From Candidatus Omnitrophota bacterium (GTDB lineage: Bacteria; Omnitrophota; Gorgyraeia; Gygaellales; Profunditerraquicolaceae), in NCBI GenBank assembly GCA_016208765.1, contig JACQXK010000004.1, positions 148,243 through 212,242 on the forward strand: a stretch of 64,000 nt of DNA. Reading direction: 5' to 3'. The notes below the pieces were generated by a model. That model was not told the DNA's origin, did not search any database, and saw nothing but the letters and a program-made list of their open reading frames with translations. The translations under genes were made by a program, and so were the position numbers. Shown here piece after piece: positions 1 to 64,000 of the stretch; the stretch's first letter is position 1; each line of letters opens with the position of its first letter.

Positions 1-330
1 ATACATGGCAAGCGTACGCAAAACCTTATGGCCGCATTTGTCATACCATGGTGGATTTGAAAAGATCCTATGAAATCTTTCATTAGGCCCCAAGCAATCA
101 TAAAGATCTCCGCAGCAGACCTTCACATTTTTAAATCCACTCAAGTTGGAAACAGCATCATCAAAAGCATCTCTATTAATATCAGTGGCAACAAAACGGA
201 CACCCTCAACGTTCTTACTGCTCATAGCTATAGCAGCAGTCAATATTCCGCTTCCTGTGCCAATCTCAAGCAAACGGCATCCAGTGTGAATATTTTGGCC
301 TATTACATCAACAGCCATATCTGCCAATTG
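1..330 (-). other. HemK/PrmC-type (NPPW motif IV) SAM methyltransferase domain, truncated by the window edge (LEIGTGSG ... DINRDA ... NPPWYDK)
   Basis: Motif I at about 235..260 and NPPW at about 25..45. Confidence 0.55.
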
Positions 331-11259: not shown

Positions 11260-11268
11260 CCATTTTTA
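11184..11268 (-). other. Frameshift junction splitting a class-I SAM methyltransferase domain (motif I, VGCGDGS, is in the upstream frame; post-I and motif II/III, FDLVLFNESL...LLNKYGKILIID, are in the -1 frame). Candidate one-nucleotide indel near the TTTTT/GGTCTGG run at 11238..11250.
   Basis: The giant frame reads ...ILSVGCGDGSLEKLLLKNGCVVFG then nonsense and a stop. The overlapping -1 frame reads ...GAYVGSAYAAIEIMQRVALNCPEIAAPGGFDLVLFNESLNSMRGIELVLRQAFSLLNKYGKILIIDYANP, matching the equivalent stretch of the two other methyltransferase copies in this gene (GISVEGWELDRQLY / GINVFGCEFNNSLY). Confidence 0.6.
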
Positions 11269-38200: not shown

Positions 38201-41200
38201 TGCGGTGCGTAAAAATTACGGCTCTCTTACCTATATATTCCGGCGCAGACTCTGATTTTCTTAAAAACTGTGACATTCTAAGTAAAACATCAATAAAATT
38301 ATCCCCGCCACAAGGCTTAACCAATGCATTATTCCCAAAATAATATTTTTTGTATAATCTTTGCTCATCAGGAGTAAGCTCTTCAAATGATTTATTGCTA
38401 AAGTTTCCGGAAGACTTAGCAATAACTCTTTCATCGGTAACTAAATTTATATTCATACCTTTATTATTTAAATATTCAACAAATGCCTGTGCTGCTATTT
38501 TAGCCCGGCTCAAAGGGCTGGTAATTACTATGATATTTCCCCCTATTTCTTCTTGGCCCAAACCGCTCTCAAGCAACTTAAGCCAAATTCTATGAGCTAA
38601 GCCAGAAAGCCCTAATGCCGCTTGCTGCGTAGGCAGATTAATATCACTATTGCTCCTTCCCTGAGGGATCCTTTTTGCATTTGCCAGAGTTTCCGGATGG
38701 CTCACCAGACAAATCCCATTAAATCCCGTAGGATATGGAGAAAAATTATCAATTATAGTAAGCTTAGAAGTATCCCCGTGTACCAAAACCCCCGGCAGCC
38801 CAGAAACTTTTTTTAAAACCAGTGACTTGGCAACAGCCACTTTCACTTGTTTTATTAAAACATCATCTCGCGGAGCAAAAGCTAATGTAACCAGGGCCTT
38901 TTCAAATTCATCTAAAGTTATATAAATCTTAGCAAGAAAACTATAGGCATAAATATTTTTAGCCCAAGTTTCTATGGCAAGCATACTAAGAACAATTGCT
39001 TTGTTAGTGTCTTTTGGGAAATATATCTTTGCCAGACCAAGATACGCTTTAGATAAATAAGGCTGGTCATCAGCATTAATTTTCTTTTGCTTTGGTGATC
39101 TGTTTGTTATTGTCTGTATAACACTCTCAAAAAGTTTTCTTGCTTGGTTTTTCTTTCCCTTGGAAAACAATACCTCCGCCAGATTGACTATTCTTTGCGG
39201 GTCATGCGGATAATGCCCTTGGACGATACGGATCTGTTTGCCATCCGGACGATAATCACTCGCAGGCCTGCCTTTTTTCTTTCTGGTTTTCTGAAAATTA
39301 TCTGGATCATCACCAAAACTGCGGCCATTTTTCTTACCCTGCAGTGGCGAGGAAACAGCAGCTTCGGAATTGCCTAAAGGACTTTGCGCAGTAAACACTG
39401 CTACCAAAGCGCCTAATATTTCTTGAGTTTGTAGATGTGATTGTGAGTAAGATTTATTGGGATGGGCTTGATTTAAAATTACTATTATAAATACCTCGGG
39501 AGGAGCGCGGATCCCGTTTAGAAAAACAACTTGCCTATCTTTTAAAATAGAGGTTTCTTGTCCATACCTTAATATTGTAGATCTAACCATTGTTCTTGCC
39601 AGCAGAAATCCATTTAAACCTAAAGTAAATTTTAGGGTTGGTTGTTGCGAAAGGCTACTGTGTGCCGACACAGGAATCCGGGGAATATCTGCTGTTTTGG
39701 CTACTGCTGAAGAGGCATTTTCGCAAAGTCTGTCCAATCTTTCCCGGGGAGACTCAAACTCAGGCGCTAATACTAAAACCTCTTCAAGAAATTCTATTGC
39801 CTTTTTTCTATACGCGTGCATAGCGGCAATTTTGTTAAAAAACCGATAATGTATTGATCCTGCTTCAAAAATAGAAGCCACATTATTATATATGTATGCC
39901 AAAATCCAAGCCAGGGCTTCTCTTTGCTCATGCTTACGTTGAATTCCTTTCTCATAAACGATTCTTTCCAGGAACTGCGGATCCGGCATTAAAACCTTCC
40001 CATTTGGAGAGATGGAACCTACGCTAATATGCACATTTTTATAACCTTCGGAATCAACAGCAACTAAATTATTGAACCCTAATTCTTCTAATAAAAGATA
40101 CACAAAAAGAGACATCTGGCCACAGGCGCAAAGCTGCGAATTTAAAATCACAGAAAGAAACTCATTGCCTGAATCAACCATATTCTTAAACAGTTGCTCA
40201 AGCATTTCAATATCCGGCTTTTCAATAAACAGATAGCTGATTCTTTTAAAAGTTGGAGCAAACAACAAAGGCTTTTGGGAATCCATAGAAAAAACATCTT
40301 CTTCTTCGCGCCATTCATTTAACGCAACAAATACTTCTTCAACACTCCTGCCACGAAGATGCCTGCTTTCAATAAATGGCTGCACCAATAAAGTTCTAAT
40401 TTTGTGAAGATTACCTGAGTGCTTAAGTGGAGAAGAAGCGCAGCCTGGGATAATCCCTTTTAATCTATCTGTATTCCAAAATAAATACCCGTCCAAATCT
40501 GCGCAATAGTGAATCCAAGAAAAAGTTGCTTTTAATTTGTTGAACCCGCGCAATGTTGGCCCAAAAAGCACGAAGAATAAATCGTTTTTCAGTAATATCT
40601 GCGCAATTCTCTCTTCAAGTAATTTCTCTCCTTCACAAGATGCACCCATGCCATAATAATAAACAATTTTACGCCTGCTTGTTTGCGGCAATAAAGAAGC
40701 CTTCAAATAATCACCCCAGACAAAAGAAAGCTGTCCGGGCCTTACTAACCCTTTTTTTATACCAAATTCATTTATCCGCAAAGATTCCTTATATAGCTGC
40801 CTGTCTAATTCCCAACCTTCTACTGATATTCCAAATATATGTGCCAAGCCCAAAGCAAACACACCATTACCTGAACCTAAATCCAGAAGGCTTAAATCAA
40901 AATTGTTTCTAAGCTTAGCGATTGCCTTCGCCGCCAAAACAAATGCCTCATCACAAGAAAGATAATGGACCCCTCCAAAGGTTAAACGCCTCGGCCACAT
41001 ACCTGACAATTTCTCTCGCAAATATCCAGAAGCCCACTTTAAATCAGTATTGAATCTGTCAAAATAATACTGCTGCATTAAAGCCAAATAATTAGAAGCA
41101 AGCTCACAAATACGCTTATCGCGGTTTGTCTTAATTAAATCCACCTTAAGAGTTACTACGCTGCTAACCACAGAGCTTCTTTCTTCTCTTAATGTATATA

Positions 41201-44200
41201 GTGATGTTTCAATTTTTTCTTTAGCAGCCAAGGCTGAAGATGCGCTGTAACTTTTACCCACTGTCCCGATTGGGCTGCCGGAAGGCAGGGGAATAGTCTC
41301 TGGTTTGTTTTGTTTAGCTGCTCTTAATACTATTTTATCTAAAATCTGCTGATAAAAACCTGCACTTCTTTTCTGATCGCTTTCTGTCAAATACTGCCTT
41401 AATTGCTCAGGATTAATTTTACCCGGGTGATTTTCATCCTCAAAGCCAAATCTCTTATCATGAAACACCTTAATTAATGTATTATTAAAAATCATTACTG
41501 CACTTCTGATGCAAATCCTGAAGCTACGCCAAGAAATCTTTTTAGCATTAAGCGCATCTACAAGCTCAGGAATAAAAGTATCTAAGGTGGAGAAAAACAC
41601 CTTTCTCTGAAATGACGCAATATGCTCGGCATCACCATTATGCCCTTTAACCGGAATAGTGCGTAGATTGGAAACCCTGTCACCAAGTTTGTCTAATTTC
41701 ACAACAAAGCCTATAAAATCTGCCTCACCCGCTATTTCCCGAAGATATTCACATTCAGGCTCACCTTTTTGTTTTGATATCAGCTTTACTGCCCGGCAAA
41801 CATCCTTGCCAAAAAACTGCAACAATTCTTTTTCGCTCGCATCTTCCTCTTCAATGCTGTCATGCAATATGGCAACAATCAACATAAACCAAACATTTTT
41901 CCAGCTGAAATACCTTTGTATTTTAACCTCACGCAACAAAACATTGACTATATCAAAAACATGAATAATAGAAGGGGTTATGTTGTTCTTTCTCAAAACC
42001 CCCATTTGTTTCTTAGCTACAATCTGCACTGCCTTATTCAGCAGCTCCCTTTGCTCTAGTGTAAATTTAATATTTGTGCCTCTTAATACCCTCTTAATAA
42101 GATTATTAGACAACCTTCCGGAATAGAAATGAATATCTCGCTTTCTTATTTGCAGTTCTTTGGCAAACACGGTCCTTAAAGTCTCTATCTCCACATCAAC
42201 CGGGATCTCTACACCAAACAGATAGCGTAAATACCCATCACCTTTTGGCTGAGGATTCAAAAACGAAACAATGTTAATATTATTAACCTTAAAGAACCCT
42301 GTTATATCCACAAACTTTATTATTGAATACTTGGCAGAAAATTCTATTGTCCATACCTTCTTTGGCCGCCTTGCATATTCTTCATCATAATAATCTTCAA
42401 TGGAGGCTAAATCATTTTTCAGCATTTCTATGCTGTTAACGCACGAACGCTTAATCAGAATGTCTAAAAGCATTTCCCTCTGGTTATCCAGCCTTCTCAT
42501 CTGCAAGATAATCCCTACATCAAGCCCCAATGCTTCAAACACCGCAAAAAATATATCATGCAGAATTCCCGGGCGCTCATGCTCAAAGACAAGCTTGAGC
42601 TTAAGAGTGGCCCGCTCTGAAAGTGTCCTTCCAAGCTCAGATACCTGACAATTAGTACTGTCAACCGAAGAAGATGCAGCCATTCTATTCGTTTCCTCAC
42701 AAGAGCCTAATGCTTCCCTCTCTCTTTCAGCATTACCTGAAATATTAAACCTGAGTATTTCAATCTCTTTAAATATCCCGGAGAAATCCAGAATAGGATA
42801 TGCTGCCCTTAACCTATCAGCTTCTTCCTCTAAAGTTTTAATAACTTTATCTTCTTGTAAGTGCAATTTTAACACTTCCAATACCCGCTTCTTAAACATA
42901 TCAACCATCTGGATACTTAATTGTTCGTGTAATTTCTCTATTGCGCCTTTATAGTGCCGATTTGTTCTTTTACTTACATTAAAAAACTCATACACAGTAA
43001 CTTTATCATAACCAAAATGCTTTCCGAGGCCAGAATATTGCAGTCCATTGAAGATCCTTGAGCTTATAAGCCTGTTTATATCTACCGGGGAAAGCGGACC
43101 AAGATTTACTTTATAACTTAATCTTTTTATTGCGCTCTCTAATAATAATCCTTCTTCATAGTTAAAAAGTCCGCTCAAATATTTAAATGCCATTGGCTTA
43201 CAATCACGTAATAAGCTATTTAACACACCTTCATAACCAACTTCATTTTCTGCCAGCTTGGTTAATTTATCACAGGCCTCATTAAATCTGCGCAACACCT
43301 GAAAACGGCTGCAACCCAAAGCCTCGGCTATATCCGGATATTTCTTTCTTGAATCCGCAAGTTTAAGCGCTACTATTTTCTTGGCCAGGTCAAGCCCATT
43401 CCTCCCAACTTTGTCTAACCTGGTTAATAACGTTGCTATGAATTTATTATATTTAGCCCTTCTATAATCATCTAACTGCAAAATACAAGTAACAAGATTT
43501 TCTGTTAAGAATTCCCTGAGCCTGCGCTCTACCATATCTTTTGCCTTATGATTAAGCCCATTACCCAATCTTTGGTAAATTCCTCTTACACTAAAAGGCT
43601 TACAATTCCATCCTATTAATGCGCTGCCTATATACTCTTTATTTAACCCCTTTTCTACTGCAAATGGTACATCTAAATCTTGGACATTCACTACTATAAT
43701 TTTTATCGCGAACCTCAACAAATCTCTCTGGAGTTTATTCAAGATTCTCTCTTCATATGAACTCCGCACCACACTCAAAAGCAAATACTCGTCAAAAAGA
43801 TTGAATGCCATTCTTAACCAACAACGCCAATAACTGGCTGATAAAGCCTTAAGCTGCTCTTGAGATATTAAAATTATCGGGATAGGTTGATTATTGCATA
43901 TATGCCTGCGTAAAACACCCGCCGGAAGGCCCAATCCAATCTCAATCTTTCTTAATGTTTCAATCATCACAAAGCTTGTTCTTCCTGCTGCAATATCATA
44001 AATAGTGTTTTTATCAATGCCGGATGCGCGAGCAAGCCTCTCCAGATTAATTCCATCCTGAACAAGCTGCCGGAGGATCATCTGCAAAGCTTTTATATCT
44101 ACTGAAGATCGCGCTGAATACGTGCGTAACGATGAACTGCCTTTCCCGAGGCCATTTTCTTTTATCTTTAAAGGAAAATTGGCCCGCCTCCAAGACACCT

Positions 44201-47200
44201 TGCTATTCCTTAGTTTCCTATAAATCCCAACTCTACCGTAGCCAAACCTATCCCCCATATTCTCATAACTAATAACTTCACCGCTCTTTATATCAACAAA
44301 ACAATGCCTGCTTGATTCCAATATATTCAAGAGATCTCCTGAACCTTCTTTTTTAGCATCAACAACCGCAACTCCACCCAAGCCGAGCAAATTAGCTGCC
44401 TGCTCATAGATTCCAAAACCTTTTAAATCAACGTCACTAATATTAACAGATTTGGCAAAAAATACATGCGGATTGGCGCTGATTAAAGAGTAAGCTCCTT
44501 TTTCTTTTATATCCTGCTGGCTATAAAAGATTATTTTTCTTTCTCTTTCTATTCTTTCTGCAGGATGCCTCCAGATAAAAGAAAACTTAAAAACTTTTCC
44601 TAAGCAATTAATGTCCTCCACTCTGATTTCTTCTGCTCCCATAGCAAATAACTCCCAAATTAACAGATCTCCGCGGGGGGCCATATTTAAATCAAGGAAA
44701 GCGGTATGCGAATAGCTGCCTTGCTTACTTTTATCCATAATATAACCATACAATTTATCTGAATGATTAAGATAACGAAAATCAACCTTTGCAGAATCAA
44801 TAAAATCGGCCTCTGCTGCGTTTGTAGAATAAAATAGGGCAGCAGCATCTCCGGCTGAACAAATATACAACGCTGTCAAATAATCATTATCAGGATTTAC
44901 CACTTTGCAAATTGCCAGATAATAATTAATACATATATCAATTATTAAGCTTCTGAATAAATCAATTTCTGTGTCAATATAAGATTTATAATCACTATAC
45001 TTAAACACCTTTATTCCAAGGGCAGAAGAAACTAACCATTCCCTTTGATAAAAATCAGTTACACCCATACCGGCTTCGCTTAATGCCTCTTGACGCGGGC
45101 TAACCACTGATAATCCTGAGCTGGCACGATCTTTCATCCTGGCTTCTGCAACAAAACCACATAATTCATCTATTATTTTTAAATATAACCTGTTAACCGG
45201 GAACCCTTGCTTTGCAGCAGCGCTAATTTCCGTTTCTTTAAGCCTTTTTAAGTCCTCAAGAAAACGCTGTTTTTTAACAAGCCCCGCTTCACCAAAATCT
45301 CCATTTTCAACAAAATCCCTGATCCTCCTAAGAACAGCTATCTTTACCATCTTATTTTCATAGCTTAAATCAAGCAGGTGCTTCAACAACTCAAATTTAT
45401 CAATACCGGCATTCTCCACATATCTTATTCTCTCGGAAACATCAATGCCGACAGCGCAATACAGCAAGATCTCTTTGATTAATGGCCATATTACCTCAAC
45501 AACAAAAATTAAACCAAAGGTAGTTAGTAAAACACCTGCGATGTTTATGGGGCTTGAAGAATCTCCCGCTGGCTTGGGAGGGCAAAATTCATCATACATC
45601 GCCGCCAAAGTATCACCATCAAACTCTGGCTTTTTACTCTCCGCAGGCTGCGCAATAACCGGCTCTTCTATGCGCGTAGTTATGCCTGCGGCTGCAAGGA
45701 GAACATTCTTATCTTGAACCGGAATTATTTTCTGAAATGGCAGGCCGCGAGGAAAAGAAACATCAATCTCGGAATTATCGCTTCTCTTGAATTCATTATC
45801 AATAAACAAACCGAGCCACTCAGACAACTTATTAAACTGTTCTTTTGTGATGTTATCTATTCCCTTGATTCTAAACAAATAAAAGTGCGGACCACTGATA
45901 ATAACTGCATAATCTCTATATTCACAGAGAGGAATAAGTGCGTCTATAACCTTTTTTGCTTCTTTTGCAGACGAATCATCTTTATCCAACTGGCCAAGAG
46001 AATGCTTTGTCTGCGAGTATAAAATATTATTGTTTCCATCTATGATAGAAACATAGATTCTTATCCCCAGTTCGTTTTCAATGTATCGGGAAAGCTCACA
46101 AAGCAGCACAAGCGGCCTGACGTGCATGAACCATTTTGCATTAACGCAAATATTCATACCTTCCTGAGTAGTTTTCTTCTCTGGAATAACGCTAGAGGAA
46201 GTTTTTATCAAAGGCCTAAAATTACCGTTAAACCCGCCGCTATAGCTCATGGCTACCCCAAACGCCTCATTTAATATATTTAGATATTCCGAAGGCCAGC
46301 AAAAATAATAGCTTAGGTTATAAAACAGTACCTGTGACAAGAAATCCACCGCCCTTGCTTCATCCCCAAGGCTGGCATAACATAAACCAAGATGATAAGC
46401 AGCAGGTACAAAATCCAGTTGGCTAAATAAAGCGTTTGTTAAAAGCTCAATTGCCTCACATAATCTGCCTTGCAGCATATAAATTTTCCCAAGATTTAAA
46501 TACAGCCGGCTTGATCCCGGGCATAGTTTTATACCCTCCCGGTAACAGCAACAAGCAGCGTCAATTCTACCTTGAGATGTTAACAAATTACCTAAAGCAA
46601 GATAGTTATCTTCAAAATCAGGATCAAGCGCAATAGCTTTTTGATAAACAAGTTCCGCCTCCGGGGAATTGCCCTGCAAAAACAGGATATTCCCAAGATT
46701 ATGATGCCCCAGGAGATATTCAGGCCACACCTCAACTGCCCTGCGAAAATTAACCTCGGCCTTTACATAATTATGCAAATAAGCACATATGTTTCCTAAA
46801 CTGCCAAACAAGAATGGAGTAAGCGCCTGTTTTTCAAGCACCTGGATCACGGGATAATAAACACTAAGTATTTCTTTTGTGGGTGTATTTAAAGTAAGGC
46901 TGACCCTAAGCATGGCTTGTCTTACCTCCTCAGGGTTTAGTTTAAAATTATCCCTCAAAACAAACATATTATTTTCAGGAAGATACATGCTTGGGCTTAA
47001 CCCATCCAACCTAAAATAGATTTCCATGAAAATACTGTTATAAAAATCAACCAAGACACCCATGTTATTTGGCATTCTAACCATAACAAGAGTGCAGTTG
47101 CGAGTAACAACCCCGGTAATTTTGTAATCATCCCGGGGCATATTTCTTAAAGCATAACTTAACAATAAATATAATAATTGCGTAAGGCTGTCTTTATAAA

Positions 47201-50200
47201 GTTGTCTTTCAAAAGTTAACCTTGACTGTTCATCCATGCCGCTCATAGACATTTCTTCATATATATCTGTGCCGTTTAAGGCATTAACCAAGAGCCTGGT
47301 TAAAAGACTTTCTCTCCCTTGCGAATTAACGCCAATAACGCTTGAATAAATAATAAGATACTCTGCAATCTTACGGACATACTCAACCCCGGAGAAATGC
47401 TTAGTTAAATACATAATTCCATTATCTAAGTCTATTTGCTTTAATAACTTTGCAAACTCTATAGTTAAATGCATTATATAGAATTCCAGCTCATCACGGG
47501 AATAACCGATGCTAATAAGAGTGCGCCAAAGAAAAACGCTAATCTTCTTCTCCTCTTTGCTCATACATCCCACTCCGGAGCTTGATGAAAACACAATTTT
47601 ATGTTTTGGATCATACCTAACCGTAAAATTTCTGTTGAAATGACTAATCAACCGGCCAACCTTAGTTTGCGCAATCTGAGAATAGCTAAAAGATATACAG
47701 GCATCTTGCAATCCTGTTTTAATAAATTCCCGTAAATCCGCGTTTTCTTTCTCTTGAGCCTTCTCATCCATGAATAAACGAATATTCTTTTGGTTGTAGA
47801 ATTTAAGAATATAGTTTATTCTGTCGCTACGCTCGGCAACAGGAATAAGCCGTACAAGCTCAAGCAATGTCTCCATATTAGAAATCATTCTAAACTCTAA
47901 TTTCGGAACATCTTTTACTGCGTGAGCAAGGTTTTGCATAAGGAAAACAGCTGCTCCTTCACCCTCTCCTTTGAATATTTTAATATTATTACCATAAAAT
48001 GACGTGCCGTCTTTGGTAAATCCGCCAAAGAACTGGCCTACGAACTCTTTGCCAAGTTTAACAATTATCTCCACAGATTTTGCGCCATTAATATTAATTT
48101 CATCTCTTATTACCGGTAAAAAACGGAATTCCTTTCCTGTCCTGGAAATAAAACTAATGCCGCGATAATAACCAAATACATTATTAATCATATCCTCTAA
48201 ATCTATTGTACCAATGCATACAGCAGAAGAAGCCATGAGCGCCACGGGAAGAACATTACTCTTAAATAACCCGGTAACATCAATGCAATTTCTTTTCTTG
48301 CATGTTTTCTCAGACATTAAAGATGTCTCCAGAGAGAACGGTTCTTCAGTTAAGTCAAGAGAAAAACATTTCCCTCCGTTAAAAACATAAATTGCCTTGG
48401 CATTCTTATCAAAATAAGCCTTACTTTGCGAGTCAAGCTTAAAAACAAGCGCGGATTTTATTTGCTGGATAACTGCAGCTGTTAACTCAATCTGCAAAGC
48501 TGCGTGGTTTTTTAAAATATAAGAAGTTAATTTATCCGAAGCAATTACTTTAACCCCACTTACAAAACCATTGGCATCTACTATTACATCAATAAATCTA
48601 CTATCCCCGGAGGCAATAAAATGCCGAGTTTCGTTTTTATCCAAGAAAGCTGAGCCGCCCTCAATAATGCCGCTGATTCTTTCAGCATCCTGCACAAAAT
48701 CCTGTTGAATAATTATCACACCTGGAACAATAATTTGCGTTTTTCCGAAATTGCAAATCGCTTGCATGCCTTCTCGTCCTGCAATCTCTGCATCAAAATA
48801 CTGTTGTTTTGCCAAATCCTCCACCCCATTTTCTCTTGCAGCAACCAATAGCCTCTCCCAGGCAGGCTCAAAGACTCTACGCGCAAACCAAACCAGCTCA
48901 AACTCAACTGACTCTGATGCCCTTAATATTTTTTGCCCTAACTCCTCAAAACTTAACCCTTTATTTTTAGTCAAGATGGATAATATCTGATGGCCTGACA
49001 GCTTATCGTTAACAGCACACATATCAGAAGCAAATATTCCTAAGGCTTCTTGCATAACTTGCCTAATGGCTACAACTCTGTTATCATCCTTTTGCTCAGA
49101 TAATAACCCTGAGAGTGTATTTGATAAAAACTCCCCGCCATAATAATCCTTGAGCGCAGGGTAGAACTTTTCGGTCAATCTCAAAAGTAAAATCATTACA
49201 ATTTGTTGCGCATTCATTTGCGCGCGCGATTCTTCGCTTGTGACTGCCTCGCTAAGAAACTCGTCTACCACCTTACGATATCCTGGGCCAAATAATTCTG
49301 TAAATGCCATCAAATAAGGATTAAGAATTAATAAATACAACCCGCGGAGCTTATCCCGGGCCTGATTAAATAACTTATTTTCTTTTTTCTTAGCACTGCT
49401 TTTTTTCTTTTTTCCGTCTTTAAACACCGGGTACTGATCAAGCTTGCCTAACTCCTGTTTGGTTTCTGCTGAGGCTTCTTCCAAGGCTGCGGCAAACTCA
49501 GGCCTTGAGCAAAATACATCAGCCGCCTCTAAAAATGCTGGTATTCTTTCCGGGGCCAGCACAACCGCCAATTCTTCCACCATAACCCTAAACAACTTTT
49601 GTTTATTATCTGCATCGTCTAATAGATAAAGCGTGTACTCCTCATCCGGATAACGCACAAAACAAGTAACTCCTGACTTTTCAAACAATAAAAGATCATT
49701 GCGAATGATCTTATGCGCGTCGTCTAATTCATTGTTCACGATACTAATAAGAATAAGTATCTGGTAATCCAATGGCTGGACACCGGATTTTCCTTCCAGC
49801 TGGATCAATTTCCTGAGCATTTTAGCTGCATCGGCAAACCTTAATTCAAGAAGATACAGCCGGGATAAATGACGAAAATTATTTGGATATTGCGGGTAAA
49901 TATTAATTGCTGTTTCCAAGGTTCCGATCGCGTTCTTTCTGTCATTACTATAAATATACGCCTTTGCCCTCATTTCCATAATTTGCGCTTGTTCATGCAG
50001 ACTCTTCACCTGTGGCAGCAACTGTGCAGAAAGCTTAACTACATCAGCAAATCTTTCCTGTAAAAGCATTATCTGCATTAACTGCCTCAAAGAATTTAAT
50101 TCCTCCCCGGGGATTTTACTATTTCCTAACATTGTTGCTTCTGCTGCGGCATAATCTCCTACCTGCATAAAATACCCGGTACGCGCATAATTGATATTAA

Positions 50201-53200
50201 CTCCAATGTCAGTTCGCACATCCTCTCGCACATCGTCACAAAGCTTATCTGTTGCATTCACCACCTGAAGAAAATAATCTTCCGCCTCTTTATACCGGGA
50301 TTGCCTTAAGGAACAAAGACCGAGATTCTGCAGCGCATCAACCTTCAGCATGATTGAAAGCCCGGATATCGCCAAAACGCGGCTATAAATCGTAGCAGCA
50401 GAATCATAATCTCCTTTTTGCATAAAGTTATACGCGGCAATCATTTCATCTTCCGGATTTGGACGGAAATATTTTATCGCGGAACTGGCAGCTAACTTAC
50501 CCTCTTTAGGAATAATTATTAAGGTAACGGCTTTTTTATTCTTAATATCATTGTAAGCCCGAACACTCCAGCCATGTTCTGCGGCCACGCTATAAATTGT
50601 TTCTCCTCCAATTCCTGAATGCCCGGCAGAAGAATCTCCTGTTGAAATTCCTTTTACAAATACTAACTGCCTATTAAGCTTTGTATCTATTAACAACATT
50701 TCCTTAGGAAATTCTCCGCTGTTACTATATTTAACAACAATTGTTTTTGTATTTTCGTACAAAGCAAGAACGATTTCCCCAAACTGACCCGGAATGGCTT
50801 TTAACCCATTCTTTCCTAAATTGCGCATCAATAAATCCAGATGATGCCTATTCACCCAAACCATTGTTTCTGAACTAACACGGCTAATAAAACTAAAAAT
50901 AAAAGCCTTCTTATTCTCCGTTCCTTTAGGAGTCCTCCTGTTTATGCCCGTTTGTTCCCCTCCTTCATTAACATTCAAGTTTTGGCCAACAACAATTGTT
51001 GCCCTCATTAAATCAGCGAGAAAATAAGGTTCTTTCCGTACTTTCCCCTCTAAAGGAAAAATAACTTTTCTTTTTTGAGAAACACTGCGCAAAGCATCAA
51101 AATGCTCTCTTAATCCAGCCTCAATAAAATAACTGTCATTTACAAGCATATTTACAATATTTAAACGGTTTTTAACCCATGGCTCGTCTTTAATGTCATC
51201 AATCTTTATTCCACCGACCATTTCCCGCAACCTGACCAACGCCCCCAAAATAACTGAATCATAATAATAAAACATTAAGTCTAAATTTGAACTTTTAGGA
51301 GCAAATTTTGTAATAGTGTTAAGGTTACGATATAGTTCACTCAAAGCATCAAACAACCTCGCTTTTATTGAAGAGGCATCTGCAAAATACATCTGAACAT
51401 AAATACGATCCGTTCCTATAGGAGTCACATAATCATGCCTGATTTTTCTTAAAATATCTTTTATTTCATCAATCTCTTTCTCATTGAGTTGCCTTGAAAA
51501 GACAGAGCACAAGCAATAAGACAAAAACGCCTTAAAAGCAAATATAATTATATTATAATATCTTTTAATTAATGGAATTAGACTTATTTTCCTCTCAAAT
51601 ATCGGACTTGAAGCCACAGAACCATGAAGGGCTTTATTAAAGTCTTTAGTAAGTGGCATAATAAGAGGCACGGAGTTAGAAGAGGCCCTACTGGCACATG
51701 GGATAAACCAGCCACGCCCCGTTGCAAAGCTGCAAATGTCCCCCACCCCGTTAGAAATAAGTTTAACAAAAGCCCAGATAAAATTTCTAACGGGGTAAAC
51801 CAGCCACGCCCCGTTGCAAATGAACGGATTCTCCCCACCAGCCACGCCCCGTTGCAAATGAACGGATTCTCCCCACCAGCCACGGAAGGTAAAGAATCGC
51901 TCTTTGATGAAACATTTGCAACGGGGCACGGAAGGTAAAGAACCGCTCTGTGATAAGACATTTGCAACGGGGCACGGAAGGTAAAGAACCGCTCTGTGAT
52001 GAAACATTTGCAACGGGGCACGGAAGATAAGACTTTGCCATAAATCAAGACTATTAACAGCACTGCTTGCAGTAAACCCTCTCACCACCGCGCCGACTGG
52101 AGAACTAGAAGTAGCCTTATTTTTTCCTGCTCTTAAAGACACTGCCACTCCTCCAACTGCTAAAACCACTCCTGCGGCAGCTATCGGATGAGGAAACTGC
52201 AGATTTAAAATGCTTGAGAAAATCAAAACAAAAGCTGGGGATGTATTGGTAATACTTTTATTTAAGGAAGTATCGAGTTCAGCCAATGCACGATAGCTTA
52301 AAATCAAACTAACCAAGCTTAAAACAGTTACCATAAATATGCGATAATTAAAAACTATCACATCCCCACCTACAAATATCTTTGCCAAAATTACCATGAT
52401 CGGAAAAGATACAAAATAAGCCCAAGCCAACAGCTTTGTTATCGGCATAATATCCCCGGTCTTCTTTTTAATAATTTCTGCTATAGCATAGGTAAATGAT
52501 GAAGCTATTGCTAAATAAACCCCTACTGCGTTTATGTGTGCATCAATGGCTTTATTCGCAGAAAATACAGAAACAGCAATTACGCCTGCTACAGCCATAA
52601 GTACTCCAATTAACTTCTTTAATGTTACTGATTCTTTAATCAGTAACGGAGCGATGAACACTAAAAATATGGGAGAACTCTTAATAATCACTTCGTTAAC
52701 TAATATAGAATTATATTTAAGACCAAAATAATATAGCGGGGATGACAATATTTGAGAGAAAAATATGCCTAAGCAGATAATAAATACTTCTTTCTTTGAT
52801 ACTCTGGTGTTGTCAATGCTTGAAGTAACACTTGCAGGCTTTATTATTTTTTTCAGGTTAACCCATATTCGATAAGAAAGTAATATCAAAAAAGCATAAA
52901 GGTAGTAGCTAGTCTGGATCACTAATGGCTCTACTCCGGATTCAGTTAATTGCTTCCCGAAGAATGGCTTAACTGCTACTAACATTGCACAAAGCAAAGC
53001 CATAATTACGCATTTTTGCTTAGAAGTTAACTGCAGCGCGCTGGAGGCAATTGCATTAATAAATGACGCCGGCGGGCCGCGGGAGAAAATAATTTTACCA
53101 AATATAGAGCTTATAGTGGAAACCCGGCTTACCCGGGCATCATAAACAGGGCTGGAGGTTGTAATTATCAAAGCGTTTCCCTGTAATTCTGCCATTTCTA

Positions 53201-56200
53201 CAAGGCCGGGAGAAGAATGTAACACTCCGGCATTAGCATCAAAAAGGTAACTCCTTATTCTGTTAACCCTGCCTGAAGCAGTTTGCGAGGGGCGAAAAAC
53301 AAAAGTATCCAAGAATAAATCGCTCGCCATAACCAAATCTACGCTTTCATACATGAATTTACCAAACGACACTAACGCTGCGATAACTGAAAGATTAAAA
53401 TAATCACCTTCTAATAAAAGCGGCCTTTGGCCGTCTTTAGAGTTGAATGTTAAGCCATCCACAGTAAACACATCGTCTTGTTGTTCATGCACCCTGACAA
53501 ATAATTTCTTACCATCAGGACGGGTAAAAATTAGAGGATATGTCTCCCTGTCATCCCGACTCTTGGAAGCACGCCAGCCAAGAAAATTATCAATTTTAAG
53601 AGGGATATTGTGCCAAAAAGCGAATCCTGTCCTCAAAAGACCGAGCAGAGTAACACGGTTATTAGGAAAAATTAAGTATTCTTTTTTCTTCTGCACTGAA
53701 TTATCAAAGCTCCTGAATTCAACCGTATCATTGGGATAATAAACATCAATAACCGCACCATTCCTTGATGTTTTCGCCGTATGTTTAGGAATCAGTTTTT
53801 CCCCGCTTCCGGACAAAATTATCCCCTCCGGCCTAAGTTCAAAAACTACAAAATTGCTTTCATCCTCTCTATCACTAATAACCATAAACCTGCTGTGATG
53901 CGGCATATCTCTATAAATATTAAGCCGGTGATTCCCGGTTGTCCTGTAATAAGAAGCTAACGAAATAACATCTCCTCCAAAAAAAATATTTCTGCTGTTG
54001 TTAGTTTCGGGCACAGGGCAGATCCTTCTAAGGAGGCTAAACAAGATATTTTTTCTCTCTGAGCCGAATTTATGCGCAACGCCTAAGCAAGCGTCCCTAA
54101 ATGCAATAAACGCTTCAGAAATATCAATAAACAAATTCTCTTTATTATCTCCCTTGGCCACTTCACTGATAATCACACGGCCATCTAACTGAAATTCTAA
54201 AACTATCGCCTTTTCTGAATCGCGCAAAATAATCTCAATTTTTCGGTTTGTAATTAAATAAAGCGACATTTCAGAAGAGGTTGAATGCGGGCCGTTAATA
54301 TTTCTTGCGGAGATTCTACCAGAAAGCATATCAGGAATAGTGATTCTTACGTCGGAAAACCTGAAATTCCTACTAATAGGCTCATCTGTATATTCCACTA
54401 AAACAACCATACCTAAATCTGCTGACTTTAAGTCATGAGTTTTCATCCAAGAATACAAGGCTGCTAACTTTTTTGACGCTGTATCAGCAGTAATGCTGGG
54501 CATACGCAAAACAACTTCAGTAGGAGTGGGAGCTCGTCCAAATTCATTCTTAAAAGCAGTTACAATACCCATAATTTCTAATTTCCTCTGTTCTGTAAAG
54601 ACAGCGGATTTTGCCTTTCTTGCTGCAACACTCCTTTGTACTGCTAAACTGGGAAGTTTTTCTTCCGTGCCTTGCGCGTTAGTATTTGCAGCAGAAGAAG
54701 CGCTGTTAACTGCCACCACCGCGCCTACTGGAGAACTTGCATCTTGTTTATATAATGCTTGGTTTGCCTGCTGGAAATCTAATTTATGCGCGCCCTCAAT
54801 ATCAACAGACCTCCCCCCTAATTGCTTAATTAAATCCATTTGCCTGATTCTGCCGTGATTGACATAAAGCATCTGATTATGCCTGCCCCTAAAAAGATTC
54901 GCGATAGCTGCCAAGCCCAGCAGTTTACACATTTTTAAATCTTCAGGACAGGTATCTGCTGAACGATAAAAGTAATCCACTTTACCTGCCAAGCTTACGC
55001 CTAAGCCTGCAGCGGAAAAAACGTTTCCTATAAGCATGCCGGCATTCTCTAACTTTGGATGGCCAAAGGCATCAAGTTTTTTCGGGTCTGAGCCAGCTTC
55101 AAAAGCAGCTTTAGCTATAGGATTCTTTCCAAAGACCCTGGTTAATACAGCTGTATTTTCGCCATAATCCTTGTTTATCTTAACCCCTTCGGAAACAATT
55201 ACTATCGCCCAACCGTGCTTTTTATAATAAGCTCCGACATCAACGGTTAGTTTGTCCAAATCAAGGTTCGGCTCCTCAGGAATCAACGTACGGCTTGCCT
55301 GTATCTGCCTGCCGATTTCTAATGCTACGAACCCGGAATTCCTCCCAAAAACATCTACAACCAAGACTCTCTTGGTGCTGATTGCATCAACTTTTCCGTA
55401 AACTATAAGCGGTATTGCTGCCTGCACGAAGCTTAGAAATCCATAGGTAGTGGCAGTTGACTCAGGCAAAGCAATATCATTATCCATAGTCTTGGGTAAA
55501 CCGATAATCGGAAATTCCGGATGGTCTCTGTGTAAAAGATAAGAAACGCTATTCGTGTCATCGCCTCCGCAGGTAATCAGGCCGTCAAGCCTTAACGATC
55601 TAATATGTCTCCAGAGCAGGCCTGGAACACCCTTAGCAACATTTTCTTTACTATAGGGATTTGTTCGGCTGGTACGGATTACTGTCCCTCCCTGAGTGCG
55701 GTGCGGCTCGAGTTTATGCAATAAAAGAGGCTGAGCCTGGGAGATTAATTTTTCATCCACGAGCCCTTTCCAGCCTTCCCAAATACCGAATAATTCAATT
55801 CCAAACCTAGCTGCGGCTTTTGCCGCCCAATAAATTACCTGATTGTGCCCTGATGCCGGGCCGCCTCCGGTGAGAATACCGATACGCCTCATCGGGGGGA
55901 GGACGTCTGGAGTGACAGCGCTAGCAGCAACCAGTTTACCTGCCACCACCGCGCCTACTTTGTAGGGACGGTTCTGAACTGCGCTTGAAAGTGTCCCGCC
56001 CGGGGACGCTTCTAACCGTGTTTGAGAACCGTCCCTAATTATGGGGCTGGAACCATTTAATGTGTTTAAGAGTAATCCTAATATCTCTAATTTTTTGTTT
56101 TGCTCTAAGTAAAAGAAATACGGGTGAATGAAGATGGTGCCTTCAATAATTAGACAACCGGCAACTTTTGATTTGGTAAGTAAATTTCGCGAGGTAACTA

Positions 56201-59200
56201 AAAAATTAACCTCAAGCGGCGGAGCATTCTGTTGACAGCCGTTAGTTTGTTGAAACAATTTATTTAAAAGCGCTTCCAGATTTTCTTTACAAAATTCTGC
56301 GGATTGGCTGACTATTTGACCCGCCTCTTTCCCACATTCTACAATACTCAAAGATATTCTTCCTTGATCTTGATCAGGCTTTAGCGACAAAAACACATAA
56401 AAACCTTCAGGAAATGTTGCCGGCATACCAGACGGCAACTGCGATGGCACATCTAATGAATAACGTATCACTCCACCAAGCTCTGCGAGGCTGGATGATG
56501 CCTTACTCCGGCTAGCGGCGGATTCTTCTACAAGCCCCTTTGAAAACTCAATCTCAATATATGCGTAGCCATCTTCACTATTCCCGGCAACAATCTTGCC
56601 GCCTAAAATCTTCGTTACAATGTAATCCATGCTAAACATTCCCATGCCATGCCGGGTTTGCATCTTTTTTGAAGTTACTCCGTCTTTAAAAACCAACTGC
56701 CTGCCTCTTGCAAAATCATAGAGCAGGAATTCTTCAGGAAAAGCTCCGGTGTTACTGGCCCTAAAGATAATATTACCGGCATTATCTCTGCTGATATTTA
56801 CCTTAACTAATAATTTACTTCTATCTGCGGCCGCTGTAATTCCATATCCAACACCGCTAAACACGTCTTTAATATTACGCAGGATATTCTCAACTACTCT
56901 CTGCATCAGGCGATTATGCAAATTAATAATCAGATCCACGGCGCTCATGTCCTCAGAATAAATATTAAAGACAACAGCGCGGCCATTAAGATCAACAGTA
57001 ATACTCTGGCTGAATTGGCCCGCCTCCGGCAAAGTTACCGCGCAGCCAAGTTCTCTTTCTGCTGCCTGCGCAAATACCGTCTTGAGGCTTACCGGATCAC
57101 GATTGATCACCGTATTTGTCGCCATAGCAATATAATCCATTAATTTATCTGAAAGCGGTCCATCTTTGCCAAGGATATAAGCGCGCATATCCTGGATTAA
57201 TAATCTGGTTTCTACAGCAACTTCCGAAGGCTGGCTTAATTTTGTGCCTATGGCTTCTATTTCTGTTTCAAGTTTCTTTAATAAATTGACCACTCTGAAG
57301 AGCTTACCCGGAGAATCCAACGGCCCAACAAGCTCGGTATAACCTGATTCTAATTCTTCCAGAATTTTTGCTTTGACGCTCCTTGGAGTATTCATCAACC
57401 TCAAAAGATGATAACGAATCATTGCATAATTACGATGCCTAAAACTATTCAATACTATCTCTTTAACCTTCTTGTTATAAAGCCCCTTGAATCTTCTATA
57501 AACACCCAGATAAAAACTCAATTGCTGGTTCAATGCAAGTATGCTCGGCTCTAAGCTACTTACTTTTTGAATCGCGGCCAAAAGTTCTTCTCGGGCTGCC
57601 GATTCTTTTTCTACAGTATCAAGCATTTCATAATTTTGTCCGGCTTCCTGTAATGCCCTATTCGTATCAAGGGCCCAAGCATTATGCAAAATATCACCCA
57701 AAGTTTTTATCGCAGAAAACAGCTCTGTCTCAGGAAGAGATCTTGATAATCTAATTAATTTAGGAATAATATAACCTAAATCATGAACCGCTGCCCTTAA
57801 GATCCTGGAAAAATGCTCAATTCTCTCAATCAGAGAGCGCTCATTTAAGGCCTCTTGAGCCTGTAAGAGCTGCTCAGGAGTATTTATCCCAATAATTTCA
57901 TCAGCATCAGCGGTTTTAAGCAGCCTGACTATCTTGTTCGCAGTTATTAAAATATCAATTAAATAGGTAAACGGTTTATTTAATAACTCGGCGCATGCTA
58001 ACAAGTCTGCAAAAATGTTCTTTTGCAAGACACATATACCACCATTAAATAAACTTACTTTTTCCAGGTCTTGTGGGGTAAAGGTACGGCTGCCTTTTAA
58101 AACGAAACTTTGTTGTTCCAAAGCACGATCATAATCCCCTGACTCAATGATGCCAACAGCCCTGCCTTCTTCAACAGGTATAACCCCATATGTCCGGCAA
58201 GGCACAGAGTCTCTTTCCCGAGGCATATCAGCAACAATGATACTGGCATCGGCAACAGGATATTCAGGAAGATGATAACCTAAATGGCATTTGATCAATG
58301 AAAGCAAAGTCTCAGGCCTTATCCCCGGCACATCAGCAGGCATAATCATAATATGACCCTGGTTCTTCATCACTTCTAAAATTTTATCTTTAGACTGTTT
58401 TAAGACATCTGCGGTTTGAGAACCAATACATTCGTGAAATTGGATATTCAAATCTGTATAATTATTCCTGATATACTCACACACATAATCTTCTGCCACT
58501 CCAGTTAAGACCAAAATCGGAATATTATTGTCCGTGCCTTTTGAAACATTCCTTAAAGTATCCAAAATATAACCCAACATCGGTTTAATTTGCCCTGCAA
58601 CAGCAATACCTAATCCGAGTTTTATGCGAATGCCCATATCAACCAATAATTTCTTAATCCTTCCGCTCTTGCCACCGGCAAGTAATACTATGCCGACATT
58701 TTTAACTGCGCTGTGTTTATCAGTAGCTTGTTCATCATTAAAAATTTCTGACATAGATACAAGCCTTACACCACCGGGAGTGGAAGTTGCGGCGCTTGAA
58801 GCCGAATAAACTTTATTTTCTTTATATTTATCAAGCATTTGGTTTATTGTTGCGGCTTTTTCTCTGATTTCTCCTGAATTTTGAATAAAGTCTTTTGATG
58901 ATAATCTGGTAATTTCTTCTACTATGGGCCGTATTTGTTCTACAAAAGAGACAATATGCTTCCTCCTAAATTCCCCCCAAGTAACCCCTAATAATTTCAC
59001 ACGCTTAAATTTCATTTTATCAAACCCCTGCAGGCCCAAAAGAAAAAGGTGTTGTGTACTTTGAGTGCAAGCCAATACTGGATCGTCTATCTTAGTAATC
59101 TGCAAGAGCCTTAACAGAAATCTTTGCATTTCCCAAAGGACTTCTTCTCTGATTTCTGCAGGAGTATACTGATTAGTATTATTCATAAGAAAGTAAGTAT

Positions 59201-62200
59201 TAATTACCTGCATCCTGTTCTTGCAGATATGGCAAAACAGGTTGAATACCGTAAGCCTTAACTCTGCCTCAGTCATTTCTAAACTTGAACGCGGATTGAT
59301 AGATAAAAGAACGATCCTCTCTTTCTCACAACCACTTTGTGTTTGTAATACTGCTGCAAAAGGCCTGCCAAAACGGCTTAAAACTTTGCTCAATAATGAG
59401 TTATTTATTTCTTCAGGGGTGAAGTTAATTCCAAATTGCGCCATCAAATCTGCCAAATACCTGTTAAGCCTAGTTGTGACATTCTCCCTTAATCTTTCTT
59501 CTATATTAAAAGGGTTATTGGCTTTATGTTTCTTGTCTGCTGCAAATATCTTCTCTAATAATTTTTCTTCTTCGCGGTTCTTTCTCTTTGTCGCATTTAT
59601 CAGGCCGATCAAGAAAGTTACAGTCTCAAGATCAAGCGCTGTTCTAATCTCTACTCTTTCCACATCCGCAATAACCGGCTTTAATAAATCCGCCACCTTT
59701 GAGGCAATGCCAAGATACCTTGCCTGAGGGCTAAGGAACATGTCATCAATAAAAAATAATAACCCGTCTTTTGAGAAACCGCCCCTGAAACATCCCCATG
59801 CTCCGGAATTAACCAGGATTTTAAACCTTTCTTCGTTTTCTTTCTTTGAAGCTAAGAATTCTATTGCCAGAGAGTATTCAGTCTCTCTTTTGGGTTTTTC
59901 CAAAGCAAAGATCCCGGATAATCTTAACACCATCCTATTTATTACAGAAACACTAGTCTCCGGCAAGTTAATCCAGCGGTCATTAAACGCTTCTCTTAAT
60001 GTCTGCTCAAGCGACGATGAAACAGTCTGAGATAACCCTGCCACCACTGCGCCATAATTAGCAAAGCTGGATAAAAAATTAGAACCATCTCTATTGCTTA
60101 GAGCGCTACTTGCGGCAGGCCGAGTCACCTCAGCAGATTTTATGAGAATCTCTTCTAAAAACTCTAATGTTGCTTGTGGCGAACGCCCAATATGAATAGC
60201 CTCAGGAGTAACTGCTTTAAACTCATCATTAACTGCAAGAATATTACCTTTAGCTAAACATTCCTTGATTGGATCATCATTTCCGTTTTTATAAAATTCG
60301 TCACCAAAATAAAAGAAATTAATTTTATTTTCTTTCTTACCAACACCTAAAGAATCCGATATTGTGCTTATGAAATCCTCTAAGGCTACATTTTTTTGAG
60401 CAGTAGCACCGGTAATATCAATTGTTGTTCCTCCTCCAGTCCGGATATTAAAAGAAGCGCTTTTATCACCCAAACATCTACTGAAAGATACCATTAAGCT
60501 TTTCCTAGGGTCAGTTTTGTCAGACAATTCTGGGATAGGTTTTACAGCTAAGCTTCCATACATTGTTTGGCCATCATCAGTAACTATCACTCCTCTTGTT
60601 TCTACCCATGGAAATGCCATCTCTTTTTTTACTCCAGTATTTTTAGCTTCATCCTTAAAATCTTTAATATCTTGCGAAGGATAATATTGAATCGTAAATG
60701 GCGGATTCAGGCTTTCTTTCCAGGGTGTTTGCAGAACGAAATATTTATTGTTGCTTTGCGCCGAGTTTATAAACTCTTTCAAAGCTTCCCCCGTTAACCC
60801 AAAATTATTAGACGCTGCATTTTCTATAGCCTGATTGATAACTTTCTCTATAACCTCTTTATTCATCGCATGTTTTAGATTATATTTCCTAATATTACCA
60901 TCATTAAGATCTTCTTCTCCTCTATCAGTAAAACCTATTTTTGTTGCGCCTCCGCTAACATAAAATGTTAAATTTACGAAAGCTCGTTGATCATTTCTCA
61001 TCTGTTTCTTTATAGCATCAACAATCCTGCTCATTTGTTCCTCTTTTGAATTACCCGAAATAATAGCCACTTTCACGCCTTCTCGCAACAACCGCATAAA
61101 AACATAAGCAAGGCGCGTATAATTAGTAACCGATTCTGACTTCTTAGGAAGGATGGTTTTATCAACGTCAAATACAAACCCACCCTGCCGCCTGATTCTT
61201 GCCCAATTTCCTATGATATATGAAATAACTCCTCCAACAATAGGGTCATCTTTAAACAACCCTAATTGTCCATTTACCCACAACCTTCTATCAGCACTTA
61301 ATGTTGCAAGGACCAACCTTCCTGCATCTTTCTTCAGATCAACTATTTTAAAACCTGCCTTTTTAATTCCAAAAAGAGAAATAATTGCTTCCCGCAACTC
61401 AGTAGAAAACATTTCTATTTCATCTGACTCAGCCTTAACTGCAACACCGCTAACTCTGCCCATAGACACATCGGTAACCTCAGTTAAATCATTAAAGGTT
61501 CTCTCAACATCCTCATCCCTTAAATAACTATCTAAGACATAATCAACGTAACTGCTAATTTCTTTATCAAACTCAACTTGTGCATCACTTTGCATATCGC
61601 TTGCGATAAAACGATAAATTTGCTTCAGCTTTCTTAACAACTCATTGCCTCTTCCGTCACGCTCCCTTCTCATTACTCCAAGATTTATCTTTACCGCCGA
61701 TTTAGCATTTTCAATCGCTTCTTTAATTCCGGGAACAATGAGCACCGGAGCGATATTCTTTTCCAAAGAGACATTTGAATAAATAATTACATCAGCTGTT
61801 TCTATCGCTTCTTTTGCCTCTTGAGTGATGGAAACTGTTTTCGCACCCCGCGTTGAGGAAAAACTGCTAATAGCTTCCGCTACTTGGGGAACATGTTTTT
61901 TATCTATTTGCCTCGTTGAGATTTCTATATCTTTCTTTAATACCTGCATTTCTTTTGTAACCTCAAGTACTGTAAATCTATTTGGTAAACGATAAACAAT
62001 GTCTTCTGTTACCCTGGCTAATTCATCAATAAAGGATTGAACATTAAATTCATGAGTATCGTTATTAACCAACCACATACCAATAATTGGCGACTTAGAT
62101 TTATAATGCGTTAAACTTTCTTCTGAAAAGTGGATTGTTCCATCTTCCCTGATAGCAACCAGATGCTGCCTTTGCTCTGTCGGAAGAATTACCCGATCTC

Positions 62201-63917: not shown

Positions 63918-64000
63918 CCTTTCAATAACTGCCCCATCCCAAGTTACAAATGCAGCAAAGGCCGCATTAATTAAATATTTAAGGTACCCCGTAGGCCCTG

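Follow-up and report, generated by a model that had tools for sequence, protein, structure and literature searches.

The window analysed here, a stretch of 64,000 nt (64 kb) from contig JACQXK010000004.1 of a Candidatus Omnitrophota bacterium, carries on its minus strand a giant open reading frame (ORF) at 11184..64000, which runs for more than 17,600 codons without a stop and continues past the right end of the window. This ORF is a chain of unrelated modules of enzyme, transporter and TPR type, with EamA and TPR among the Pfam families recognized in it. Just after an EamA transporter module on the same strand (52068..53045; PF00892, E = 2.8e-20), which lies immediately upstream in the sense direction, a cluster of tandem and inverted repeats fills the spacer between two copies of a linker motif, ASSAV at 52067 and ASSPI at 51611. 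The N-terminal bound of the spacer is the SSAV copy, preceded by SSSPVGAVVRGFTA (52056..52067, minus strand), and its C-terminal bound is the SSPI copy (51600..51611, minus strand). The repeat thus stands in frame and directly behind the EamA domain, as an earlier note made from the letters of this DNA had placed it. About 13,500 codons lie between it and the 3' end of the ORF, and more than 4,000 codons separate it from the start, which is outside the window. Here we describe this locus as a conserved 80-nt palindromic element, expanded to three tiers, which occurs in frame in giant genes of Omnitrophota.

Two arrays, which are two of just three tandem arrays in the window, make up the repeat. 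The 46-nt unit, for which 3.1 copies had been claimed, is given 3.3 copies at 93% identity by Tandem Repeats Finder (51881-52030; 93-95% between copies), while the 38-nt unit, of which at least two copies had been expected, is given 2.3 copies at 100% identity (51799-51884) and has a third, diverged copy at 51700-51747. On the sense (minus) strand, three 46-nt units are followed by three 38-nt units, the third of which is interrupted by a 54-nt hairpin insertion. The partial reverse complementarity of the two unit types was likewise borne out, as a 14-nt core, CCCCGTTGCAAATG, occurs three times on the plus strand and then three times on the minus strand, where shuffles give 0.54, and the arms of the units extend to 24 nt at 83% complementarity.

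The composite element spans 51713..52018 on the minus strand, that is 306 nt or 102 codons in the frame of the giant ORF, and consists of three nested tiers and one small hairpin insertion, all of them on that strand. Its 5' arms are the three 46-nt units, namely unit 1 for the outer tier (51973..52018), unit 2 for the middle tier (51927..51972) and unit 3 for the inner tier (51881..51926), a unit being composed of P (CCCCGTTGCAAATG in unit 1), a variable part v and X (ACCTTCCGTG). The terminal ...CCGTG of unit 3 adjoins GCTGG at 51881/51880, a junction that is the apex of the hairpin and, as we propose, the point of insertion. The 3' arms begin with 38-nt unit 1 for the inner tier (51843..51880), composed of Y (GCTGGTGGGG), a part s, P' (CATTTGCAACGGGG) and CGTG, and continue with the identical unit 2 for the middle tier (51805..51842). 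Unit 3, the diverged 3' arm of the outer tier, is split into its first 6 nt, GCTGGT (51799..51804), and its distal 32 nt, GGGGGACATTTGCAGCTTTGCAACGGGGCGTG (51713..51744), and taking out the 54 nt (18 codons) between them (51745..51798) restores exactly 38 nt. The inserted piece contains a 50-nt hairpin, CCCCGTTAGAAAT-24 nt-ATTTCTAACGGGG, of a 'TTAGAA' sister subtype, whose stem, previously put near 51747..51795, is a perfect one of 14 bp (51745-51758 / 51783-51796); it scores 22.4 bits against our covariance model R1, and its two arms have departed from the main core through changes that compensate each other. By comparison, 46-nt unit 3 and 38-nt unit 1 together form an 80-nt hairpin plus CGTG, and R1 scores 51831-51936 at 117.9 bits. 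The composite is flanked on its 5' side by an X-like sequence, ATCTTCCGTG (52019..52028), which ends in CGTG, the repeat found after every P', and on its 3' side by a Y-like sequence, GCTGGTTTATCCC (51700..51712).

The repeat region has a GC content of 0.52-0.54, as against 0.28-0.40 in its flanks, in keeping with the earlier note. The peptide that it encodes, exemplified by FRGWWGESVHLQR, is without a match to a Pfam family and, compared with the ORF as a whole, is rich in Cys (4.9% vs 1.3%), Pro (6.8% vs 3.7%) and Trp (3.9% vs 0.9%), as had also been observed, and Phe is enriched as well. The further statement that the region is open in all frames did not hold, since only two of the six frames are free of stops over 51690-52030, both of them on the minus strand; the third minus-strand frame has 4 stops and the plus-strand frames have 3, 5 and 11. 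All three sense frames are open solely within the tandem arrays proper.

The element is not confined to this genome. Both the count of the core motif and covariance model R1 failed to detect a second copy in the 64-kb window, but the element is present in five further contigs (L073, L074, L075, L077 and L078) and is thus not unique across genomes. These contigs were reached by three routes: the encoded peptide led to protein P0001, whose contig is L073; a 20-mer common to the window and L073 led, in a metagenome scan, to L074 and L075; and an index-free HMMER search led to P0002 (L078) and P0004 (L077), which are annotated at NCBI as proteins of Candidatus Omnitrophota or Omnitrophica metagenome-assembled genomes (MAGs). 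A 20-mer taken from the 38-nt unit gave chance-level matches or none in the scan of genome contigs and in the first scan of metagenome contigs. The element has three tiers in the window and in L077, two in L078, and one each in L073, L074 and L075; L073, in addition, has a further diverged copy at 609-705 according to R1, which makes two copies in 3.3 kb. L074, from Hainich groundwater, L075, a 335-kb contig, L077 and L078 carry the element in frames that are open from end to end over 755, 3266, 1807 and 4796 codons, respectively, and the L073 copy lies in a small ORF of 201 codons. Five of the six loci are fragments of giant ORFs. In all six the element is oriented in the sense of the ORF, and the copies lie outside Pfam domains. 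The protein sequence flanking them is homologous neither among the loci nor to the window; only the element itself matches. A separate observation concerns L075, whose giant ORF holds a distinct 70-nt repeat, CGTGGCTGGTCCTTTGGCC...GGGATTGGGGTC, twice on the minus strand (L075:1370-1452 and 6739-6809; 93% identical), which begins with the same CGTGGCTGGT as the element apex and stands once after the element and once after a bare apex-like site.

Comparison of the six loci defines the basic element, which reads X-P-v-X|Y-s-P'-CGTG-Y on the sense strand, with the 80-nt hairpin core P-v-X|Y-s-P'. Its terminal inverted repeats P and P' are CCCCGTTGCAAA and TTTGCAACGGGG, its invariant apex X|Y is ACCTTCCGTG|GCTGGTGGGG, and v and s are variable yet complementary to each other. 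The terminal inverted repeats, CCCCGTTGCAAA(TG) / (CA)TTTGCAACGGGG, pair over 12-14 bp and are perfect in the window, L073 and L075, occur as compensated variants in L077 and L078, and have a partly decayed P arm in L074. The length from P to P' is 80 nt in the inner tier of the window and in L074, L075, L077 and L078, and 83 nt in L073; with CGTG this gives 84 or 87 nt, nested copies add up to 168, 252 and 306 nt, and every one of these lengths is divisible by 3. The 46-nt unit is P+v+X and the 38-nt unit is Y+s+P'+CGTG, adding up to 84 nt or 28 codons. Both unit sizes recur in the window, L077 and L078, and in all six loci the two units are present in equal numbers (1+1, 2+2 or 3+3). In 10 of 11 tiers, CGTG stands in front of P, with CATG instead in L075, and again behind P', with CGCG or CGTA instead in L078.

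Conservation of the element is strong at the nucleotide level. An alignment of four loci, from genomes of 39.5-50% GC, has the invariant blocks CTTCCGTGGCTGGTGG and TTTGCAACGGGGCGTGGCTGGT, of 16 nt and 22 nt, and the alignment of all six loci, whose source contigs have 36.7-50% GC, retains CTTCCGTGGCTGG and TTTGCAACGGG, of 13 nt and 11 nt, as its longest invariant runs. The conservation does not lie in the peptide, because the reading frame differs between loci: L073 and L075 read PSVPRCK / FRGWW / LQRGVAG, L074 reads FRAPLK / LPWLVG / FATGRGWWG in another frame, and in the multi-tier copies successive units are read in all three frames. This difference of frames leads us to reject the reading of the repeat as a protein motif rich in Cys and Trp and selected for its amino-acid sequence, to which we give almost no credence, as the absence of a Pfam family and a conservation that follows nucleotides and base pairing outweigh the short similarity PSVPRCK..FRGWWG..LQRGVAGG among the window, P0001, L075 and P0004. 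The single copies have stops in the sense frames that are not used and none in the frame that is used. Neither the 3 nt by which L073 differs in length nor the 54 nt inserted in the window disturbs the frame, which argues that these ORFs are translated through the element.

The strong hairpin potential anticipated for the region was confirmed by folding. As RNA, the sense strand folds at -161.6 kcal/mol (z = -7.6) and the antisense strand at -138.8 kcal/mol (z = -7.4), and as DNA the minus and plus strands fold at -80.7 kcal/mol (z = -9.9) and -75.1 kcal/mol (z = -8.0), respectively. A GC-corrected sliding scan ranks the repeat first among the minus-strand folds of the window (z = -6.35). In the minimum-energy fold of the sense RNA, the units of all three tiers, inner, middle and outer, pair as nested helices, and every copy of the element folds to one long hairpin with X and Y at its tip. 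This hairpin is supported by compensatory changes. Among the six natural copies, 95.4% of cells are paired, as against 44-53% when the partners are slid by 1-3 columns, six pairs are changed on both sides, and the covariation score was reached in none of 500 shuffles; in the set of 11 sequences, to which the outer tiers had been added as virtual copies, 92% of cells are paired and eight pairs are changed on both sides. Compensation specific to a subtype is visible as well, with TTGCAA/TTGCAA replaced by TTAGAA/TTCTAA in the small hairpin of the window and in the outer tier of L078, and compensation specific to a tier is visible in L077, where the first P/P' position is C..G or T..A.

Taken together, we consider it probable that the region is a nested cluster of a small palindrome that resembles transposable elements of the miniature inverted-repeat kind (MITEs) or Rickettsia palindromic elements (RPEs) and lives in frame inside giant genes of Omnitrophota. 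In-frame palindromic elements within ORFs are known from Rickettsia (reviewed in PMC10969869). A new copy would enter a resident one at CGTG^G in its apex loop, and each insertion would lengthen the 5' side by a 46-nt piece (P+v+X) and the 3' side by a 38-nt piece (Y+s+P'+CGTG), such that a whole 84-nt copy would arrive as one in-frame step in which both kinds of unit are gained together. Repeated nesting at the apex would therefore produce tandem 46-mers followed by complementary tandem 38-mers without the frame ever being broken, while a lone 46-nt or 38-nt unit, once gained, would put more than 13,000 codons downstream of it out of frame. The composite would be translated as about 100 residues of meaningless peptide rich in Cys, Trp, Pro and Phe, and the spacer between the linker motifs SSAV and SSPI might be a place where such junk peptide is tolerated. 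We infer that the element is mobile, that it targets its own apex and that an enzyme moves it, and also that the encoded peptide is without function and the stable hairpin in the mRNA merely a tolerated side effect.

Several features of the tiers speak for self-insertion. In L078 the outer tier is of the TTAGAA/TTCTAA type and the inner tier of the TTGCAA/TTGCAA type, each of them self-complementary; a pair that is T...A in both inner tiers of L077 is C...G in its outer tier; and tiers within one genome share the v and s sequences of that genome. The mixed subtypes, the tier-specific pair and the genome-specific v and s sequences favour self-insertion over slippage or inheritance, and the last of them indicates that nesting occurred separately in each lineage. 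In addition, the equal numbers of 46-nt and 38-nt units in the six loci suggest that the units are gained as frame-keeping pairs and not singly.

Other observations weigh against this interpretation. Neither a transposase nor another mobilising gene was found in any fetched locus, no orthologous empty site was found, and the single comparison of an empty with a filled site is that of the two paralogous sites in L075, which is not clean on the upstream side and only suggestive. The window itself holds one copy of the element alone. The CGTG direct repeat is absent at the outermost tier of L077, and because its sequence is always the same, it may be a preferred target together with an end of the element and not a duplication. 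The outer 46-nt unit of the window is near-identical to the inner ones, in contrast to the 38-nt unit that partners it, which has diverged strongly, and such a fresh 46-mer with a decayed 38-mer would require gene conversion or local rearrangement beyond nesting. Finally, the near-invariance over 37-50% GC, the sense orientation in all six loci and the excess of G-U pairs would equally fit a functional RNA on the sense strand.

The closest known analogues of the element are the in-frame Rickettsia palindromic elements and bacterial MITEs (PMC10969869). RPEs are short palindromes with hairpin potential that lie in frame in coding genes, are translated and have unrelated hosts (PMC10969869), and the element here likewise occupies six loci with non-homologous flanks, at lengths of 84, 87, 168, 252 and 306 nt and with a used frame that is free of stops. 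However, it belongs to another phylum, the Omnitrophota, and its hosts are giant multi-module ORFs; RPEs measure about 100-150 bp as against 80 nt, and are read as one conserved peptide, whereas the element here is read in differing frames. To our knowledge, self-nesting at the apex has not been described for RPEs. What sets the element apart from RPE families 1-10 is its hosts, which are Omnitrophota MAGs and not Rickettsia, and the lack of an Rfam match, rather than a direct comparison with the RPE consensus sequences.

With bacterial MITEs such as Correia/NEMIS, ERIC, RUP and Nezha, the element shares its small size, perfect terminal inverted repeats of 12-14 bp, a short flanking direct repeat, the lack of a coding capacity of its own and a stable hairpin in transcripts. 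It is unlike them in having no known partner insertion sequence, in a 4-nt repeat that is always CGTG and is perhaps a specific target rather than a duplication, in carrying its own target and nesting in itself, and in being strictly intragenic and in sense orientation in the six loci. REP/BIME and REPIN sequences are also hairpin repeats with a conserved sequence that form clusters from units in both orientations, and IS1397 and ISKpn1 are examples of mobile DNA that inserts into the loop of a palindromic unit. REPs, however, are extragenic, 20-40 nt long, headed by GTAG and present in hundreds per genome, unlike the element here, which is intragenic in six loci, has 80 nt and lacks the GTAG head. 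REPINs go with RAYT transposases, and no RAYT gene was seen here, though no search aimed at one was made. The suggestion of a MITE- or REP-like insertion tolerated in frame was the best supported of the three candidates put forward in the earlier note, given the relatives in five contigs, their non-homologous flanks, their terminal inverted repeats, the 4-nt direct repeat beside them and their lengths in multiples of 3. The pneumococcal BOX element is modular too, with an inner box of about 45 nt in tandem and outer boxes that pair as a long stem-loop. BOX, which is named in the same review (PMC10969869), has the form A-B(n)-C, in which the middle module alone is repeated, and is mostly intergenic, in contrast to the element here, in which both arms are repeated equally and nested. 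We would class the element by its way of working with RPEs and MITEs, without making it a member of any named family; its self-nesting and its habitat in giant ORFs would distinguish it from the known kind.

The main rival, and a serious one although we consider it rather unlikely, is a functional, cis-acting RNA hairpin in the mRNA of giant genes, whose invariant apex CUUCCGUGGCUGG would be bound or cut by a host factor or would pause ribosomes. It could, for example, be a processing or stability site of RNase III type on an mRNA of more than 50 kb, in which case additional tiers would lengthen the helix; cutting of MITE hairpins in mRNA by RNase III has been documented for Correia elements (PMC10969869). 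An apex and outer stem that are near-invariant over genomes of 37-50% GC, a middle stem kept by compensatory changes, a helix of about 22-24 bp per tier, a fold stronger than any other of the window's sense strand, the sense orientation in six of six loci and the giant-ORF fragments at five of them would all be expected of such an RNA. In each of 11 copies, moreover, the sense strand folds more stably than the antisense strand, with a margin of 3.6-14.3 kcal/mol, and G-U pairs exceed A-C pairs by 24 to 5, two comparisons that are biased because the structure was derived on the sense strand. Conversely, a tier number that varies from 1 to 3, subtypes that are mixed in L078 and tiers that have multiplied lineage by lineage are what one sees in selfish repeats rather than in a tuned RNA signal. 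If the coding mRNA were cut within an ORF, its upstream fragment would lack a stop and its downstream fragment a start, and the L073 copy sits in an ORF of 201 codons. There was no Rfam match either at E <= 1 on 51000-52700 or at the gathering score over the window, and 51000-52700 contains no intrinsic terminator, that is a GC-rich stem with a U-run, so that a known RNA family or a terminator can be set aside. The structured RNA element proposed earlier is a possible reading, the hairpin being backed by covariation and more stable on the sense strand; a role for it would be hypothetical.

The surroundings of the element within the giant ORF are of interest in themselves. The peptide motif SS[AP][VILA] occurs 46 times in this ORF, where 3.3 occurrences are expected, and lies at module boundaries, among others at window positions 52067, 51611, 55988, 48230 and 36692. 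It often comes in doublets that are 13-40 residues apart, and some copies carry VGAVV. Because its serines are encoded by mixed AGY and TCN codons, it is a signal at the peptide level, and we regard it as a candidate linker or protease-cleavage signal of giant proteins. Multi-enzyme giant proteins have been described for Omnitrophota, where newly described giant genes encode 85,000-147,000 residues, and two preprints leave open whether such a gene is produced and works as a single piece and where the boundaries of its modules lie (10.1101/2023.11.21.568195; 10.64898/2026.06.07.730766). The giant ORF of the window resembles the proteins of those two studies, of the 'Archaeovorin' type. The cleavage points of Omnitrophota giant proteins are said to be unknown (10.1101/2023.11.21.568195), and SS[AP][VILA] could mark them. 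In the L075 ORF the linker peptide differs, being (A/P)PMDNG. A second open frame, also on the minus strand and in another frame, occupies window positions 1-11265 with more than 3,700 codons and runs past the left end. It starts roughly 80 nt ahead of where the first giant ORF stops, and the two could be adjacent giant genes or one gene with a frameshift.

Two more repeats were seen in linkers of this kind. A palindrome at 55963-56037 (75 nt or 25 codons, in frame) has 35-nt arms that are 77% complementary, is GC-rich (0.6), lies in a linker between SSPI and SSAV and belongs to the most structured parts of the window. A repeat of 19-38 nt, with copies 92-100% identical, is dispersed over 17876-17924, 6672-6709, 3548-3583, 1937-1955 and 41254-41274; it has a small hairpin, CAGTTTCC/GGAAACTG, in four of its five copies and encodes ...PSFPNxxETVSxxIGTVGKxGASSAV. 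This PSFPN..IGTVGK..ASSAV linker cassette is conserved at the nucleotide level and present in both giant ORFs, and its copy at 17.9 kb contains a 23-nt tandem (2.1 copies) that is read in two frames.

With the nested element, the linkers of the giant ORF thus hold three palindromes or repeats at the nucleotide level, and one may ask whether the element, instead of being junk, is one of several palindromic linker families that organise the giant genes of Omnitrophota, either as a sense-strand hairpin at module boundaries for processing of the >50-kb RNA or ribosome pausing or as a DNA joint for the in-frame capture of modules. We regard this broader idea as doubtful. Improbable, in our view, is a role at the DNA level, with the inverted arrays acting as binding or recombination sites, for instance of a site-specific recombinase or an enzyme acting on single-stranded hairpins, that join modules in frame. 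The position of the element at a module boundary between linker motifs would suit such a role, as would the palindrome at 55963-56037 and the cassette at five places in other linkers, the strong single-stranded DNA fold on both strands and the second L075 site, which has the apex motif with the same 70 nt after it. But a P ... P' pair does not enclose any module, a recombinase was not encountered in the analysis, the other 40-odd linkers of the giant ORF are without the element, and its flanks show no sign of exchanged modules.

A contingency (phase-variation) locus, in which slippage by a single unit would switch the 13,000 codons downstream, was another candidate of the earlier note and seems to us very improbable. 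Neither 46 nor 38 nt is divisible by 3, and identity is 100% between the two 38-nt copies and 93-95% between the 46-nt copies, all of which slippage would allow, and the argument that three 46-nt units keep the frame is correct as arithmetic; yet the unit that matters is 46 + 38 = 84 nt, or 28 codons. None of the six loci is out of frame, their 46-nt and 38-nt units are paired in equal counts, the units are far longer than typical phase-variable repeats, and the locus, so far inside the ORF, is not near a start codon.

Some further candidates were set aside. A tRNA-derived element or att site was considered on account of 22 nt of the 38-nt unit that match L050:4033-4054 (JAZDHS010000019.1, a Candidatus Omnitrophota MAG), namely the 5' leader and first 12 nt of a tRNA-Pro(UGG), but this match, in spite of the shared phylum, is compatible with chance, as the scan gave 41 single matches at chance level, there is no further tRNA similarity, and ARAGORN finds no tRNA in the window. 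One half of the apex, GCTGGTGG, equals the Chi octamer of E. coli (51873-51880 and 51835-51842, and also in L073, L074, L075 and L078); it is not enriched elsewhere in the window and L077 has GCTGGCGG instead, so this is probably a coincidence. As to a phage or plasmid origin, blastn gave no match in plasmids or phages and the scans of viral contigs gave chance matches or none. L076 is a chance 20-mer match inside an M13-peptidase-like gene, and P0003, from the search of representative proteins, is a spurious match to a repeat protein. An assembly artefact is unlikely because the same 46/38-nt architecture is found in independent assemblies.

The in-frame, stop-free upkeep of the element in six independent loci is indirect evidence that these ORFs are translated over their whole length, and the element marks spacers that tolerate an arbitrary peptide, here between two copies of a recurrent linker motif. 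If the mobility of the element were confirmed, it would stand beside Rickettsia as a second clear instance in which selfish palindromes have adapted to coding sequence, and its unusual self-nesting would explain how arrays of tandem and inverted repeats can grow without frameshifts. If the element were functional instead, it would offer a first handle on how an mRNA of more than 50 kb is dealt with.

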